The notes under the pieces: generated by a model
Database searches by the model: none
What the model saw: only the letters and a program-made list of their open reading frames with translations
Told to the model about the DNA's origin: nothing
Program-made: the position numbers and the translations under genes
Shown: positions 2 to 32,035 of the stretch, in pieces
Numbering within the stretch: position 1 is the stretch's first letter
Layout of the letters: each line of letters begins with the position of its first letter
From: a virus
IMG/VR virus record: IMGVR_UViG_3300025584_000449
Location: 32,001-96,000 of that record
Length of the DNA: 64,000 nucleotides
Reading direction: 5' to 3' (one strand)

Positions 2-3000
2 ACTGATGGAGCTAAAGGAGATAAGTTTGAAAAACCTATATTTGTAGGCCATCAATACTTTATGAAACTTCGTCACATTGTTAAGAAGAAAGCTGGAGAA
101 CATTCATTTGGTAATTATGATATTAATGAAACTCCTGTAGGAAAAGGTGCTCAAAAATTAGACCCTATGCTTTCTCATAGTTTACTAGCTCATGGAGCAA
201 AAGCTAATCTATATGAAATGAGTGCGTATAAGGGAAGAGCAAATGAAGAGTACTGGACTAACTTATCTCTAGGATTGCCCGCACCACCTCCATCAGATAA
301 TTTTGTATTTAATAAAATGATTAACTATATGAAGTCTGCTGGAGTTAATGTAAAAAAAGAGGGAAACAAGTTTAGAATATTTCCATTAACTGATACGCAA
401 GTTAAGGAATGGTCAACAGGTGAATTAAAAGATCCTGGCGCATTACTTGTTGGTAAAAATCTTGCAGAGCGTAAAGGTGGATTATTTGACAGAGAGATGA
501 CGGGTGGTTTACGGGGCGAGAAATGGTCTCACATAAAACTCATTAAAAAAATACCTAATCCTATGTATGAGTTAGCAATAACCAAGTTACTTGGGCTGAC
601 TGAGAATAAGTTTAATAAGATTCTAGATGGCTCTTTAGAGTTAGACGGAAAAACAGGCGTAGAAGCAATTCATGCGGCATTAAAAGGTATTGATGTTAAA
701 AAAGAGCTAAAGAAAACTAAAGCTGAATTAAAAGATGCCTCCGATAGTGCAGTTAATGGTTTAAATAAAAAAGCTAGATATTTAAAAGCTTTAAAAGATT
801 TAGACTATACTGCAGATGAGGCATACATGACTCAGTATTTGCCTGTACTACCTCCCATCTTTAGACCAGTGTATCCATTACCTAGCGGAGATCTGATGAA
901 GTCAGACCTCAATGAACACTATAGAGACATAGGAGTTATTAATAATAATTATAAAGCTATTAAAGATAAGCTAGGCAAAGAAGAACAGCTAGAGTACGAT
1001 CAATCTATTTATAAAGCTGTAAAAGCTTATCAAGGATTTATTGATCCTATATCTTTCTCTGGAAAGAAATATAAGGGAGTTATTAAAGAACTATCCGGCA
1101 CACAGGTTAAGCATGGATTAATCCATAGCTCTACGTGGTCGAAGAGGCAGGACTTGTCTGCGAGATCAACTATTACTGTTGAGCCTGATTTAGGTATTGA
1201 TGAAGTAGGTCTCCCGGAAACAATGGCTAAAGAAATATTTAAACCATTTATGATTCAAAAATTAGTTAGTCAAGGTATACCATCATTTAAAGCTAACGCA
1301 GAAGTGCAAGACTTTACTCCTACAGCTAGGCAAGCGCTAGTAGCAGTTATGGAAGAACGCCCGGTTCTTCTTAACAGAGCCCCTAGTCTTCATAAGCACG
1401 GTATACAGGCCTTTCGTCCCTTATTAATTAAGGGTAAGGCTATGCAATTAAACCCAATTATATTTTCTGGGTTTAACGCTGACCTTGATGGTGACACTAT
1501 GGCTGTTCATACACCTATAAGCCAAGAAGCTGTTACAGAGGCGTACGGATTACTGCCAAGCAAGATTATATTTAAACATGGTGATAATGGAGTAGTACCA
1601 GAAATTTCTCAAGAATATATTGTTGGTATGTATTTCTTAAGTAAATTAGGAAAAAATACCAAGAAGGAGTTTAGTTCAATAACAGAGGCTAAAGCAGCTA
1701 AACTACATCCTACTGACGTCTTCTTATTAAATGGTCAGAAAATGACTATAGGTCAGTTCGAGATTAATAAAGTATTACCTAAAGAATTAAAAGATTATTC
1801 TCGAGAGATGGATAAAAAAGCAATTAATAAAATATTTACAATTATAGGTAAGAAGTATAAAGCAGACTTCGCAAAGGTAGCAACAAGATTTAAAGAGTTA
1901 GGAAATCAGTATAGTCATAAACGTAGCTTCACTATTTCTATAACAGATTTTGCACAAGATAAATCTTATAGAGATAAAATTGTTAAAGAAGAAATGCCTA
2001 AAATTAAAAAACTAAAAGGTGATAAGCGTTCAGCAGCTATTCTAGCAATGACTGATAAAATTGAAAAAGCACAAGACAAAGTGTCAATAGGTAAAAATAA
2101 TATCTATGATATGTTAGATGCTGGTAGTATTTCTGGTGGTAAACGTGGCAGTGTTAGACAAATTTTATCTATGCCTGGGCTGTTAGCTAATGTAAAAGGT
2201 GTTCCTTTAAAAAATCCTGTATTAAAATCATATGGAGAGGGCATAGATACTAGTGCTTATTGGAACCATCTGTATGCTGTACGAAAAGGAACTGTTGACA
2301 GATCAGTTAATACGGCAGATTCTGGAGCATTAGACAAGGCTTTAATAGGAGTAACTAGAAGATTACTTATTACTACTGAGGATTGTAAAACAAATAAAGG
2401 TATCTATGTTGATGTAAATTCTAATGATATTTTAGATAGACACTTAGCTAGCTCTATAAAAGGCGTTGCTAAAAAGAATGATCTAGTTGATTCTGCGTTG
2501 CTACTTAAATTAAAATCTGCTGGATTAAAGAAAATAGAGGTAAGAAGCGCCCTTACTTGTGATGCTGCCAGTGGCGTATGTCAGCTATGCTATGGGTTAT
2601 TGCCTAATGGCCAACTTCCTAAAATTGGTGAGAATGTAGGCGTGTTGGAGTCCCAAGCCATTACTGAGAGAAGTACTCAGCTAACTATGAGAACTTTCCA
2701 CACTGGAGGAGCTGTAACCGCTGGAGGTGGTGGTGTCACAGAAGGATTCCCAAGGCTAGTTCAGTTATTAGAGGTGCCAAAGAAATTAAAGGGTAAGGCT
2801 ACGCTAAGTTCTGTAAAAGGAACTGTTAAAGCTATAACAAAAAACTTAGTTGGTGGGTATGACATTAGAATAGAAGGATACGGTACTGAAAATGATAAAA
2901 CGTTTACTATACCTTCTACAAGAAAGATAGTAGTTAAACTTGGAGATAGAGTTACTCCAGGAGATAGATTAACTGATGGAGCTATAAAACCTCAAGAGCT

Positions 3001-3433
3001 TGGAGACTACAAAGGGCACCTTGCTGCACAGCAGTATATAGTCGATGAGATAGATAAGATCTATGGCGGTGATTTCCATAAGAAAGGCATAGAGGTAGTA
3101 TTAAGAGGAGTGTCGGATAATGCTGAAATTATTAAAGCACCAGATAATAGTGGGTATTTAAGGGGAGATAAAGCTAGTATTTCATCTTTAGACGCATTAA
3201 ATAAAGATAGACGTAAAGAAGGCCTTGACACAATTAAGTATAAACCTTATTTTAAATCAATTGAGACTCTTAATGTAGATAGTGAAGACTGGTTAACACG
3301 ATTCTATACTAATAGAATTAAGTCAGCTATCCAAGAAGGAGCATCAAAAGCAGTGTATGGGGATATCGCAGGAAAAGATCCGATACCAGCATACGCTTAT
3401 GGTGACGAGTTTGGTAAGGGAGACTTTTACTAG
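2..3433 (+). CDS. rpoBC: Phage multisubunit RNA polymerase, RpoB C-terminus fused in frame to RpoC (5'-truncated by window edge)
   Basis: Frame is open from nt 2 (TDGAKGDKFEKPIFVGHQYFMKLRH..., matching RpoB [25 protein letters not shown]) and runs without a stop into RpoC motifs: LLNRAPSLH, FNADLDGD, QLTMRTFHTGG, C-x6-C-x2-C second Zn site. Confidence 0.93.
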   Translation, partial: TDGAKGDKFEKPIFVGHQYFMKLRHIVKKKAGEHSFGNYDINETPVGKGAQKLDPMLSHSLLAHGAKANLYEMSAYKGRANEEYWTNLSLGLPAPPPSDNFVFNKMINYMKSAGVNVKKEGNKFRIFPLTDTQVKEWSTGELKDPGALLVGKNLAERKGGLFDREMTGGLRGEKWSHIKLIKKIPNPMYELAITKLLGLTENKFNKILDGSLELDGKTGVEAIHAALKGIDVKKELKKTKAELKDASDSAVNGLNKKARYLKALKDLDYTADEAYMTQYLPVLPPIFRPVYPLPSGDLMKSDLNEHYRDIGVINNNYKAIKDKLGKEEQLEYDQSIYKAVKAYQGFIDPISFSGKKYKGVIKELSGTQVKHGLIHSSTWSKRQDLSARSTITVEPDLGIDEVGLPETMAKEIFKPFMIQKLVSQGIPSFKANAEVQDFTPTARQALVAVMEERPVLLNRAPSLHKHGIQAFRPLLIKGKAMQLNPIIFSGFNADLDGDTMAVHTPISQEAVTEAYGLLPSKIIFKHGDNGVVPEISQEYIVGMYFLSKLGKNTKKEFSSITEAKAAKLHPTDVFLLNGQKMTIGQFEINKVLPKELKDYSREMDKKAINKIFTIIGKKYKADFAKVATRFKELGNQYSHKRSFTISITDFAQDKSYRDKIVKEEMPKIKKLKGDKRSAAILAMTDKIEKAQDKVSIGKNNIYDMLDAGSISGGKRGSVRQILSMPGLLANVKGVPLKNPVLKSYGEGIDTSAYWNHLYAVRKGTVDRSVNTADSGALDKALIGVTRRLLITTEDCKTNKGIYVDVNSNDILDRHLASSIKGVAKKNDLVDSALLLKLKSAGLKKIEVRSALTCDAASGVCQLCYGLLPNGQLPKIGENVGVLESQAITERSTQLTMRTFHTGGAVTAGGGGVTEGFPRLVQLLEVPKKLKGKATLSSVKGTVKAITKNLVGGYDIRIEGYGTENDKTFTIPSTRKIVVKLGDRVTPGDRLTDGAIKPQELGDYKGHLAAQQYIVDEIDKIYGGDFHKKGIEVVLRGVSDNAEIIKAPDNSGYLRGDKASISSLDALNKDRRKEGLDTIKYKPYFKSIETLNVDSEDWLTRFYTNRIKSAIQEGASKAVYGDIAGKDPIPAYAYGDEFGKGDFY

Positions 3434-3828: not shown

Positions 3829-3972
3829 TTGGACATGCAGCAGTTGACAAAACCCTAAGTATCTCTATTACGGTCGGCGTACAGTTTTAACTTAACCTAG
3901 CTTCCTACTAAAGATGCAAAGGTAAATTCACCCGAAATATCCCAACCATGACGAAACGAACAGGAGCCAAGG

Positions 3973-4046
3973 TACGCCTAGTAGGATTCGAACCTACACC
4001 TGACAGCTTAGAAGGCTGTTGACCTATCCAGTTGGACCATAGGCGC
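3973..4046 (-). tRNA. tRNA-Arg(TCT)
   Basis: Cloverleaf; anticodon arm ACAGC-CTTCTAA-GCTGT. Confidence 0.93.
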
Positions 4047-4103: not shown

Positions 4104-5369
4104 TTAAGGAGAGCCTACATTAGTATCTAGGTCAAGACTAAGATCCTTAGCTGTCTTCACCAACAGCATATTAATCAAGTCCATCCCACCGTTGGCATAC
4201 TCACCATCACCGGAACCACCGATGACAGTCTGAGGTACCCAATCTCCGTTGTAGTTCTGCAAAGCAAGAGCGTAGTTCTGGTGGATATACTTTGCGGCTT
4301 CAATCTTAGCCTCAAGAGCACCATCCGCTTCCATCACAACTCTCTTACGGTAAGCTTCACCATCACCACGGAGTTTATTCGCAGTCTTTTCCTGACCAGC
4401 AGCCTGAGCATCAAGTTCGGCTACACGAAGAAGCTTCTTAGCCTGAAGTTCAGCAACAGCCTTCTCCTGCTCAGCCTTGGTTACAGCCTTAGCCTTAATG
4501 ACTTCCTGCTCCCACTTAGCCTTAGCAGCATCAGCTTCACCCTCTTTGACCGCAGTCAAAGCACGCTGTTCTGCAGCCTTAGCATCAGCCTTTGCAGTCT
4601 GAACATTGATAATCGCTCTACGCTGATCCTCAATCTGACCAGCCACCTCAGGATCATACTCAATGCCATTGATCGCTACGTTCTCAACTCTAATACCATA
4701 CTTGGTAAGAGCCGAAACTTCCTGACGCTTATAGTTTCCAGGAGCGGTAGAATCCTCAACGATCTTAACCTCTGAAACTGTTACTTCATTTCCAGAAATA
4801 GGATCGATAGTCTTTTTATCAACCGTAACGGTCTGATACACGCCATTGATCATCATGTCTTCAATATACCTAAGAAGGTCGGGGCGCTTCTCAGAAGTAG
4901 ATTCCATCGAAGACATTAGAGGACCAGCGTTATATACGCACTTCTCTGCCACTGTGCGAATCAAATCAAAAGAAAGACCCTCTTCAGTCTGATAGTCGTT
5001 ATAGCACATAGTGAGATGCTTCTCATCTAACGGCATATACCAACGGAAAGACAGGGAAAGAGACGCTCCACCCTTATCATTAAACCTAATACGAAGGGCC
5101 TGATTATGCGTTCCTCCCTGATCTTCCTTTGAGGAGAACCATGCCTGAGAGGACTTGTGCCAATCATAGGTCTGCCCAAGTCTCTGAGCTTTCATTCCAG
5201 CAGTGGTATGCCAATGGTAATCACCATCGATGGGATCCACTGTCAGGAGAATCTTATCACCATCAAGCCGCTCAATGAGCTTACTTGACGAAGCCACAAC
5301 GAAAATTAATGCGATGACGATGACAATAAGTCCGCCAATCTTAAATCCGTTAAAACTGTTATTAGCCAT
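4104..5369 (-). CDS. SPFH/band-7 family membrane protein
   Basis: N-terminal TM helix, ENVAINGIEYDPEV-type SPFH core, Ala/Glu/Lys coiled coil. Confidence 0.8.
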   Translation of the reverse strand: MANNSFNGFKIGGLIVIVIALIFVVASSSKLIERLDGDKILLTVDPIDGDYHWHTTAGMKAQRLGQTYDWHKSSQAWFSSKEDQGGTHNQALRIRFNDKGGASLSLSFRWYMPLDEKHLTMCYNDYQTEEGLSFDLIRTVAEKCVYNAGPLMSSMESTSEKRPDLLRYIEDMMINGVYQTVTVDKKTIDPISGNEVTVSEVKIVEDSTAPGNYKRQEVSALTKYGIRVENVAINGIEYDPEVAGQIEDQRRAIINVQTAKADAKAAEQRALTAVKEGEADAAKAKWEQEVIKAKAVTKAEQEKAVAELQAKKLLRVAELDAQAAGQEKTANKLRGDGEAYRKRVVMEADGALEAKIEAAKYIHQNYALALQNYNGDWVPQTVIGGSGDGEYANGGMDLINMLLVKTAKDLSLDLDTNVGSP

Positions 5370-5413
5370 TTTTTTTCTTACCTCGAAAAAATTGAATTGT
5401 TTAAACTGTTAAA

Positions 5414-5740
5414 TTACTTATTAAACCTATTTACTCTTTTCTGAGCTTCCTTCTCAGATTTAGTCGCTTGATCTAACATCTCTTTTGCATGCTCTCCTTG
5501 CTCCTTAGAGGATTTTACTCCCTCATCTGCATACGCCATTGATTCATCAAGCAACCTATCTGATTCTTTAATGCAATCCGCTGGTTCTATGTTATCGCCA
5601 TAAATCTTTTTACTAGACTTACGACGAAACCATGGCCACCAAGGAGTGCCCTGAACCTGTGGAACTAGTGTATTAAATACTAATACCACAAATATAGCCA
5701 ATATAAATAATGGCTGTGCAATCACCCATAAATGGATCAT
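5414..5740 (-). CDS. Small membrane protein upstream of the SPFH gene
   Basis: N-terminal hydrophobic helix plus charged coiled coil. Confidence 0.7.
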   Translation of the reverse strand: MIHLWVIAQPLFILAIFVVLVFNTLVPQVQGTPWWPWFRRKSSKKIYGDNIEPADCIKESDRLLDESMAYADEGVKSSKEQGEHAKEMLDQATKSEKEAQKRVNRFNK

Positions 5741-6421: not shown

Positions 6422-6426
6422 ATAGG

Positions 6427-6498
6427 TTGGTGGATTAGGGATTGAACCTAAGATACAAGAGCCAAAGTCTTGTGTGTTACCAATTACACCATCCACCA
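6427..6498 (-). tRNA. tRNA-Gln(TTG)
   Basis: Arm CAAGA-CTTTGGC-TCTTG; U1-A72. Confidence 0.92.
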
Positions 6499-6532
6499 AA
6501 AAATGTGGGCAGGATAGCCTACCCACAAAGAT

Positions 6533-6589
6533 CTAATCTTTTAACCACCAGAAAAGATCGAGAATCTGAAGGATACAACAAATTTTCAT
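6533..6589 (-). CDS. 18-aa peptide MKICCILQILDLFWWLKD (not in ORF track)
   Basis: RBS GAGAGGAGG, downstream terminator GTGGGTAGG-ctat-CCTGCCCAC-ATTTTTT, paralog at 55331..55381. Confidence 0.75.
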   Translation of the reverse strand: MKICCILQILDLFWWLKD

Positions 6590-6635
6590 AAGTTGATTCC
6601 TCCTCTCAAATTACACAGTGTGCTACACCAGTGCA

Positions 6636-6716
6636 GGTGGAGGTGCAGGGTATCGAACCCTGGTCCTACTACAGTGCGCTTCGGCTTTGCAGTAGTCGAA
6701 CAGCCTTTTCACCCCC
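6636..6716 (-). ncRNA. ssrA: Mini-tmRNA: tRNA-like domain only, no mRNA-like domain
   Basis: GGGGGTG-AAAAGGCTG-TTCGAC ... GGAC-CAGGG-TTCGATA-CCCTG-CACCTCC-A-CC. G3:U70 pair; P2a TACTGC/GTAGTA closed by 16 nt. Confidence 0.82.
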
Positions 6717-11786: not shown

Positions 11787-12815
11787 TTATATATCGGTTG
11801 GGTTTCCTGAAAAAATTATTTTGTTCTCTTTAATATTGTTATGTTCTAATAAAAAGTCAAGCACAAAACCTTTAAACACCTCAAAAGTTTCAAATACTTG
11901 TAATCTATTGTAAGCATGTAACTTAAATGTTCCTACTAGAATTAAAATATCAATCTTGTTGAAGATCACATTGTTAGTTCCAGTAGCTGTTATTGCATAG
12001 GATAGTTTATCTAGATCTAGCCATCCTATATGTCTCTGTCTACCAGTAGTTACTCCGATCTCATTTCCTTCTATACGAATTTTATCGAAGATTTCATCGT
12101 CAAGACCTTGTTCTCTGAATTGTTTAAATCCTGAATAAGTCTCGTACACTTTAGCACATCCATAGATATCTCTAAGACTTTGAGGAGCTACTCCAGCCGT
12201 GAAGGCAGAGCAGGGCAATACACTGCTTGAGGTTACATATGGGTAATCTCCATGGTCTATGTCTAGCCAGAACCCTTGAGCGCCTTCGAATAATATATTG
12301 ATGTCTCGAAAGCCATCCAATTTATTTAATACTTTTACCGGATCCACAGTAAAGTCTTTTAGTAACGGGTGTGTCTCTGCTCTGATGTTTGTTCTATGCA
12401 TTTTTCCAGCATAGCACGGGCCGTTGCCTTGAAGCGTGACTCCAATAGAGCTATCTTTTTTATCTTGTTTTAGATGTTTATCTTCTATTACGTGAGCATT
12501 CTTTGCAATAAATAATCTATTGCGAATGTCCATATCAGAGGCATTTTCAACTTCTTCAAGCTCTTCTAAGAATTTCTCTGGATTGACTACGCAACCCGGC
12601 CCTATTAAAGATTTGGTTGATGCTTTTACTGGAAAGGGAATAGAATGTGTTTGTATCTTTTTTCCATCTATATATGATGTATGTCCTGCATTATGTCCGC
12701 CGTTGAAGCGAACTACCCAATCATAATTAAATGTTTTTTGGAGAGATGTGCTCACCTTCCCTTTCCCTTCGTCGCCCAGCTGTAACCCCACCACAATGTC
12801 TGAATTCAAATTCAT
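11787..12815 (-). CDS. purA: Adenylosuccinate synthetase (short form)
   Basis: GDEGKG, GGHNAGHT, EGAQG, YPYVTSS, GVTTGR. Confidence 0.92.
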   Translation of the reverse strand: MNLNSDIVVGLQLGDEGKGKVSTSLQKTFNYDWVVRFNGGHNAGHTSYIDGKKIQTHSIPFPVKASTKSLIGPGCVVNPEKFLEELEEVENASDMDIRNRLFIAKNAHVIEDKHLKQDKKDSSIGVTLQGNGPCYAGKMHRTNIRAETHPLLKDFTVDPVKVLNKLDGFRDINILFEGAQGFWLDIDHGDYPYVTSSSVLPCSAFTAGVAPQSLRDIYGCAKVYETYSGFKQFREQGLDDEIFDKIRIEGNEIGVTTGRQRHIGWLDLDKLSYAITATGTNNVIFNKIDILILVGTFKLHAYNRLQVFETFEVFKGFVLDFLLEHNNIKENKIIFSGNPTDI

Positions 12816-31689: not shown

Positions 31690-32035
31690 AAAAGAAGGAA
31701 GGTCGCTTAGCGTCCCTCCCTCTATCATCTAATCATAGTATCTTTATAATTATTGTAAATGCTAAAGAGTCCTAAGGCTCTCCACACCCAGCAGACCATT
31801 ATTCACTAGAAGTATTCGTTCCCGTTAGCGTACTAGATAAGGAACAACCACATTAGCTGCCTCAAGTGCTCAACGCGTTAAATGTTATCTAATGGGGTCT
31901 TAACTGTTTACCCCGTAACCGAGGTATGGTTCACATATTTTAATAGTTTTAAATCTACCTAGTTCAACCATATTCCTGTTTAAACATTATTGTGCCTCTT
32001 GCGAGTTAAAGAAAGTTAACATTAATACAGTTAAG
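31690..32035 (-). ncRNA. Candidate ~340-nt ncRNA
   Basis: Bounded by GGTATAAGAA (32042) and a terminator; no ORF above ~25 aa; stems CTTAACTGT/ACAGTTAAG, ATGGTT/AACCAT, GTTCC/GGAAC. Confidence 0.5.

Follow-up and report, generated by a model that had tools for sequence, protein, structure and literature searches.

Two micro-ORFs of a large phage are members of a conserved micro-protein family that has no name as yet; its peptides end in an Asp and Trp-Trp tail, and in one bacterial phylum its gene nearly always lies beside that of a membrane PP2C phosphatase. The DNA analysed here, called the window, is a stretch of 64,000 nucleotides (positions 32,001 to 96,000) of the 179.9-kb viral record IMGVR_UViG_3300025584_000449. 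The first-pass annotation of the window, made from the sequence alone, had reported two ORFs with ten residues in common, each with a strong ribosome-binding site and a terminator of its own. Both ORFs are found at these places on the minus strand, and Shine-Dalgarno sites and terminators made of a hairpin and T6 are located for both (Table 1). One copy had also been placed 46 nt downstream of a mini-tmRNA, which agrees with the Rfam domain found 45 nt upstream of copy 1. Copy 2 has an alternative start, the TTG at 55420, which would extend it to 29 aa and has GGAGGAG ahead of it.

Table 1. Features around the two micro-ORFs of the window
Feature	Coordinates	Strand	Details
Micro-ORF copy 1	6533..6589	-	ATG 6589-6587, TAG 6535-6533; 18 aa; ends I-L-D-L-F-W-W-L-K-D
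Micro-ORF copy 2	55331..55381	-	ATG 55381-55379, TAG 55333-55331; 16 aa; same ten-residue tail
Shine-Dalgarno of copy 1	6599..6607	-	GAGAGGAGG; AGGAGG 6604-6599, 9 nt 5' of ATG
Shine-Dalgarno of copy 2	55387..55394	-	GAAAGGTG; AAGGTG 55392-55387, 5 nt 5' of ATG
Intrinsic terminator, copy 1	6498..6527	-	hairpin 6527-6504 and T6; 10-bp stem, 6 GC pairs
Intrinsic terminator, copy 2	55291..55320	-	hairpin 55320-55297 and T6; 10-bp GC-rich stem
tmRNA reduced to tRNA-like domain, 82 nt	6635..6716	-	Rfam RF00023, 51.3 bits, gathering score 47
tRNA-Gln(UUG)	6425..6498	-	first of three tRNAs downstream of copy 1 terminator
Terminator-like hairpin with T run	55446..55472 (hairpin 55446-55463)	+	just beyond antisense of copy 2

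The motif search that had been proposed as a check was run and reveals a broad bacterial and phage family. Pattern scans recover more than 60 distinct micro-ORFs with the family tail from unrelated phages, from metagenomes and from genomes of three bacterial phyla. The tail, D-[LI]-[FLW]-W-W-[LIM]-[KR] followed by zero to two K, R or D and the stop codon, stands at the very end of a tiny ORF of 15-23 residues (rarely up to 54 codons), whose N-terminal part is variable and mostly hydrophobic. Both window copies fall within the provisional family definition in size, Shine-Dalgarno site and ATG start, and both end D-L-F-W-W-L-K-D-stop. The scan of species-representative genomes gives 13 micro-ORFs at 12 MAG loci and the metagenome scan about 25 more distinct micro-ORFs; these counts are lower bounds, the scans being not exhaustive and the species-genome scan lying far below the per-phylum yield. 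Filtering on a Shine-Dalgarno site plus the tail leaves 42 distinct peptides. Part of the apparent invariance of the motif is built in, because members outside the set found from the phosphatase, described below, came from a peptide-derived pattern.

Scans of viral contigs with peptide-derived patterns yield the phage members L004, L008, L054, L057, L063 and L067. L004 encodes 17 aa between tRNA-Ser and tRNA-Pro at a G+C of 0.39, L008 encodes 38 aa with an extra TM helix at a G+C of 0.67, L054 lies beside a Dda-like helicase and ribonucleotide reductase, and L057 and L063 lie upstream of the large terminase. The distant jumbo-phage relatives L157 and L158 are without the micro-ORF, and megablast of the window region against GenBank phages gives no match. 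Pfam and NCBIfam scans of ten members, with E up to 10, return noise only (CydS 0.029, Phage_holin_2 0.13), the ESM Atlas returns unnamed clusters under the informative score, and a literature search on the motif gives no match to the family. When the 38-aa peptide of L008, lengthened to 40 aa, serves as query against proteins, only L008 itself is found; gene callers skip such ORFs.

Several likenesses of the tail were considered. It may resemble the C-terminal peptide of FtsZ, D-I-P-x-F-L-R-K. A sliding-clamp-binding motif (Q-L-D-L-F-like) was dropped, as only L-D-L-F would fit, I-D-L-L is tolerated in the phosphatase-first set, and it is W-W that forms the core of the conservation. The 26 viral matches with an internal D-L-F-W-W-F-K-D lie in a methyltransferase-like protein of ~230 aa and were set aside as unrelated; this phage family (L003, L005-L007, L009-L030) has the internal sequence S-D-L-F-W-W-F-K-D-R and looks unrelated to the micro-ORF. 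Longer proteins that end F-W-W-L-K-D-stop without the Asp-Leu part, which may be chance matches, were also rejected as members. They are unrelated ORFs of about 75-80 aa (L031:11-247, plus strand; L032; L041:5033-5257, minus strand; L045), and L032, compared with its L031 homologue, has the F-W-W-L-K-D tail shifted out of frame by a single T within a T-run.

The two window ORFs are genuine, and the constraint on them acts at the level of the peptide. A degenerate pattern, back-translated from the final eight residues, finds 2 sites in the window, while 0.02 are expected from shuffles; in the whole record neither this pattern nor a looser protein regular expression finds a third site. Over the last ten codons the two copies differ in 6 codons and 7 bases, all of them synonymous, and the peptide is kept in 0 of 200,000 trials that place 7 random substitutions. 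Codons vary freely across the 42 pattern-found members, with more than one codon in use wherever the motif is degenerate: Asp is encoded by GAT or GAC, Phe by TTC or TTT, and the Leu after W-W by five codons, and the stop codon is TAG in 23, TGA in 14 and TAA in 5. The claim of selection on the peptide is thus borne out, by the synonymous-only differences between the copies and by the codon variation across these members. Homologues with conserved nucleotides and a broken frame, which had been named as evidence against the claim, do not occur among the 70 recorded family sequences (0 of 70 frames broken). It is hardly credible that the ORFs arose by chance, or that an RNA or DNA motif is conserved rather than the peptide. 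The ORFs are far under gene-caller length and the protein database holds only one called member, but the excess of matches over expectation and the synonymous substitutions speak against this explanation, as do the more than 60 homologues, with intact frames and a Shine-Dalgarno site in every member, on contigs whose G+C ranges from 0.32 to 0.71. The micro-ORFs are probably translated.

In bacteria outside the candidate phyla radiation (CPR), all copies with enough flank lie 110-530 nt downstream of a SpoIIE-family PP2C gene, on the same strand. This linkage comprises 24 loci, including pairs whose PP2C domains are just 37-39% identical. The test was reversed, starting from the phosphatase, because these loci had been found through the peptide. 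The query phosphatase P0002 recovers 30 full-length orthologues in a sample of 46 genomes of its phylum, the Krumholzibacteriota (Krumholzibacteria in the sources), and 29 loci with downstream sequence were scored, whose PP2C domains are 34-100% identical. The micro-ORF lies within about 130-430 nt of the 3' end of the phosphatase gene in 28 of the 29, on the same strand in 26 and inverted, that is convergent, in 2. Peptides of this phosphatase-first set have 15 aa in 14 cases and 21-22 aa in 13, end in D-[LI]-[FLW]-W-W-[LI]-R plus zero to two K or R, and are preceded by a Shine-Dalgarno site in every ORF. The bacterial synteny is therefore independent of orientation and is not due to co-transcription.

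The motif is found in 79 of 201 Krumholzibacteriota genomes, nearly always in one copy, with one match to the reversed control pattern. In a second phylum, which holds L079 and L090, 3 of 41 genomes carry it, and among the Patescibacteria 3 of 61 do, seed genomes included in both cases. Of 151 Bacteroidota genomes only the seed genome, itself a chance match, has it, and none of the other 150 does. The adjacency to the phosphatase gene holds for the bacterial orthologue loci and not for phage, CPR or other orphan copies: two Patescibacteria genomes, which belong to the CPR, and several orphan contigs have the micro-ORF without a nearby PP2C gene.

The arrangement of the bacterial loci bears on whether the peptide acts in trans or serves as a leader for genes downstream. 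In L077, L088, L092 and L094 (group B) a terminator separates the micro-ORF from a convergent Redoxin gene downstream. In L076, L082, L083 and L089 (group A) the downstream order is a 5-codon ORF, a terminator, and then genes for tRNA and sigma-70 in convergent orientation. The 5-codon mini-ORF has its own Shine-Dalgarno site and lies about 25-35 nt after the micro-ORF; its position is conserved, its sequence is variable, and its stop codon abuts the terminator stem. From the terminators, the convergent genes and the two inverted cases it follows that the bacterial micro-ORF is an independent gene which ends its transcription unit, with nothing downstream to regulate. This arrangement makes a leader or attenuator less likely in bacteria and favours a function that resides in the peptide itself.

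A cis-acting arrest peptide is a distinctly unlikely explanation. It would have the tail, or the tandem Trp codons, stall the ribosome near the stop codon, and the stall would hinder the terminator and tune read-through into the tRNAs (copy 1) or the downstream operon (copy 2). Several features of the window fit such a mechanism. The ORFs are 15-22 aa long, most of the conservation falls within the 8-10 residues before the stop codon, and there is a tandem pair of Trp codons. The terminators begin 5 nt (copy 1, where the terminator abuts tRNA-Gln) and 10 nt (copy 2) past the stop codons, near enough to be touched by a ribosome that terminates there, and are followed by tRNA-Gln, tRNA-Ile and tRNA-Met in copy 1 and by a gene row in copy 2; the 5-codon ORF that abuts the terminator in group A would also suit it. 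The leaders trpL, with its tandem Trp codons, and TnaC likewise are ORFs of 14-24 aa with Trp codons upstream of a terminator. In an attenuator, however, the controlled gene lies downstream in the same unit, which is so in the window, with its tRNAs and genes after the terminators, and not in the bacterial homologues; moreover, a specific peptide is conserved here and not codon identity alone. The bacterial micro-ORF closes its unit, is inverted relative to its neighbour in two genomes, and lies at a stop-to-hairpin distance that varies from 5 to more than 14 nt, with no hairpin in L081. The stretch behind W-W is also variable, with 2 to 4 residues of which the final one may be K, R or D. No antiterminator pairing is found, as both MFE and centroid folds give independent hairpins without a competitor for the terminator arm.

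Between the terminator of copy 2 and a 106-aa ORF (55195..54875, minus strand) lies an 11-codon ORF with a Shine-Dalgarno site (55199-55243, minus strand), whose stop codon overlaps the ATG of the 106-aa ORF (ATGA).

The bacterial partner is a protein of ~840 aa, in which Pfam and hydropathy delineate, in this order, TM1, PDZ, some eight more TM helices, GAF and, at the C-terminus, PP2C/SpoIIE. Judging from the hydropathy profile and the basic residues before TM1, PDZ would lie outside the cytoplasm and GAF and PP2C inside. We tentatively prefer, at slightly less than an even chance, that a short hydrophobic helix docks on a membrane signalling protein and that the phage uses it to tamper with the host. 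In bacteria the peptide would be the product of a separate, trans-acting gene, genetically coupled to the polytopic membrane phosphatase. It would lie at the membrane or within it as a short hydrophobic helix, with the Asp and the terminal basic residues on one side and the two Trp flanking, and this helix would dock on the PDZ-GAF-PP2C phosphatase and modulate it. The orphan copies of the phage would probably act in trans on an equivalent target of the host and so switch a host signalling or stress pathway during infection.

The docking reading is supported by the nature of the partner, a membrane protein with sensor domains; it is weakened by the length of the peptides, about half of the syntenic ones having 15 aa, too short to span a bilayer. 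Gene neighbourhood is no proof of physical binding, and both phosphatase binding and the use of the peptide by phages are put forward here as candidate roles. A complex prediction with the N-terminal half of the L092 phosphatase (TM1, PDZ and TM bundle) and the 21-aa peptide, both given as alignments, returns an ipSAE of 0.00, for a peptide that is below the calibrated size of the method, and so weighs neither way on binding. Among the functions first guessed for the window ORFs (a membrane effector, a superinfection-exclusion factor and an inhibitor of a host complex), the last is favoured, because the bacterial homologues are locked beside the membrane PP2C gene.

A membrane-active small toxin, or a lysis or exclusion factor, is an unlikely alternative. 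It would disturb the host membrane in the manner of Ibs or Ldr, as a hydrophobic helix whose end is aromatic and basic, with expression restrained by mRNA structure or by an antisense RNA. Type I toxins of this kind are small, with 18-19 aa in Ibs and 35 aa in Ldr, which has Trp-Trp and a basic C-terminus. The micro-proteins share their size, hydrophobicity, and aromatic and basic ends, here in the form of W-W plus a basic residue. The longer phage members L008, L057 and L067 have one or two extra predicted TM helices, and the position of L057 and L063 just upstream of terminase genes is a common place for lysis genes. An occluded Shine-Dalgarno site, another trait of these toxins, is predicted for both window mRNAs: in copy 1 the site lies in a stem with ORF codons 6-10 (z -4.8) and in copy 2 in a stem with 55410-55419 (z -3.8). 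The plus-strand hairpin could possibly end an antisense RNA across copy 2, for which no consensus promoter is found, and copy 1 has neither an antisense promoter nor an antisense terminator. Ibs and Ldr, however, are defined by antisense RNA and toxicity, and are neither syntenic with a signalling gene nor conserved across phyla. A generic membrane disruptor would need neither an eight-residue motif kept almost invariant from phylum to phylum nor a fixed place beside one particular phosphatase gene. Nearly every carrier genome has a single chromosomal copy, a pattern foreign to mobile toxin-antitoxin loci. Peptides of 15 aa are too short to cross a bilayer, and hydrophobic moments, at 0.1-0.3, are low.

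The extracytoplasmic position deduced for PDZ invites another explanation, an exported pheromone-like signal analogous to ComS/XIP or SHP, to which we give a low probability. The peptide would be released, perhaps trimmed, and its C-terminus sensed by PDZ, and the phage would send out this signal or imitate it. C-terminal peptides are ligands of PDZ domains, the one in this protein stands between TM1 and TM2, and a tiny ORF with a C-terminal W-W plus 2-4 residues beside a candidate receptor gene would suit such a system. The tail, on the other hand, ends in K, R or D and not in the hydrophobic residue of classical PDZ ligands, no exporter, processing protease or importer is seen beside the genes, and several group A phosphatases have no PDZ match in Pfam. 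In type II ComS/XIP and SHP systems a small ORF adjoins the receptor gene and encodes a hydrophobic N-terminal part and a C-terminal WW, followed in the type II criterion by 1-3 residues (PMC5131902). The window copies have three residues after W-W, while upstream of them there is no comR (Rgg-type) gene but the mini-tmRNA (copy 1) and a 64-aa ORF without a family match (copy 2). The receptor of ComS is the cytosolic Rgg/ComR of Streptococcus, in contrast to the membrane PDZ-GAF-PP2C protein, and XIP, which has its Asp directly before W-W, is exported, processed to 7-8 residues and re-imported (PMC5131902). The likeness to ComS is architectural only, with no homology.

Comparable with the docking that we prefer are the small membrane-protein regulators in the pairs MgrB-PhoQ, SafA-PhoQ and AcrZ-AcrB, and KdpF, which have 29-65 aa with a full TM helix and occur in narrow taxa. 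In both cases a very short hydrophobic peptide is encoded by its own tiny gene, often adjacent to that of a large membrane protein, and is missed by annotation; the regulators act in trans on this protein, which is what we would expect of the Trp-Trp family as well. The family differs from these regulators by its length of 15-23 aa, its near-invariant Asp and Trp-Trp tail, its PP2C partner and its presence in at least three phyla and in phages, and no sequence similarity to them is found in Pfam or NCBIfam. In Rap-Phr systems a small peptide gene comes behind the gene of a phosphatase or regulator; response-regulator aspartate phosphatases are among the Rap proteins, and Bacillus phages and mobile elements carry copies. 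The Trp-Trp loci similarly have a signalling regulator gene directly followed by a small gene, whose product may be a regulator, and have mobile copies. The soluble TPR proteins of Rap-Phr, and its Phr peptides of ~40 aa with a signal peptide and processing to pentapeptides, have no counterpart here. By analogy, the family seems to behave like the small proteins that regulate membrane sensors, or else like cassettes of the Rap-Phr and ComRS kind; it shares no sequence family with any of these.

A more specific proposal, which we regard as doubtful, is a new bacterial pair in which a Trp-Trp micro-protein of 15-22 residues is the dedicated ligand or regulator of a PDZ-GAF-PP2C sensor, and from which unrelated phages captured the peptide alone to hijack the pathway. 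If true, such phages would be molecular mimics of a micro-protein of their hosts, and the 180-kb phage with its two diverged copies would be a case of it. Genes of 15-20 codons escape annotation and few are conserved beyond the genus, while the Trp-Trp micro-protein combines peptide-level conservation across phages and at least three bacterial phyla with a near-obligate genomic partner. Should the link to the phosphatase hold, it would represent a new class of micro-protein regulators for PP2C and partner-switching signalling, and phages would steal such micro-proteins. For the window itself, an odd duplicated ORF becomes two annotated genes.

The phage record has no match to PF07228, PF17820 or PF13185 (PP2C, PDZ and GAF), so its copies are orphans. 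Its G+C is 0.36, compared with 0.64-0.70 in the Krumholzibacteriota loci with synteny, a gap which makes this phylum unlikely as the host. The N-terminal halves of the two copies differ and their synonymous sites are saturated, which points to an old duplication or to separate acquisitions. The tail of copy 2, F-C-G-I-L-D-L-F-W-W-L-K-D, is almost identical to that of the bacterial L089, which lies beside a PP2C gene. The two phage ORFs are thus probably orphan copies of a peptide that serves signalling in bacteria.

Other genes describe the phage. An RNA-polymerase beta-like gene (62-3433, plus strand) is typical of large phages with their own polymerase, and a PurZ-like adenylosuccinate-synthetase homologue (11787-12815, minus strand; phrog_1211, 5e-59) hints at 2-aminoadenine DNA. 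The window holds 21 tRNAs.

The tmRNA-like domain upstream of copy 1 gives an Rfam match that spans model positions 1-374, and ARAGORN makes no call for it. The tag frame of a tmRNA lies inside the RNA and is entered at a resume codon without Shine-Dalgarno site or ATG. Copy 1, unlike such a tag, is outside the 82-nt RNA by 45 nt and has both signals of its own; it ends in K-D and not in a hydrophobic degron, and copy 2 and most homologues have no tmRNA neighbour. A neighbourhood of tRNA-like or tmRNA elements was rejected as a general rule, since it is seen in the window, L004 and L063 and in 0 of 11 other orphan loci. L063 is, after the window, the second phage with a truncated tRNA-like domain that abuts the micro-ORF. 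Its element of 56 nt (L063:9454-9509, plus strand; RF00005, 41.8 bits) has no anticodon arm and carries G3:U70 in the acceptor stem; the 5' acceptor strand consists of the last micro-ORF codons, and the stop codon UAG forms tRNA positions 8-10.

In L093, a Parcubacteria MAG, two c-di-GMP-II riboswitches (3928-4011 and 5392-5476, plus strand) lie around a small unit, in which a receiver-like ORF of 137 aa is joined by the micro-ORF in two tandem copies (4908-4976 and 5131-5199).
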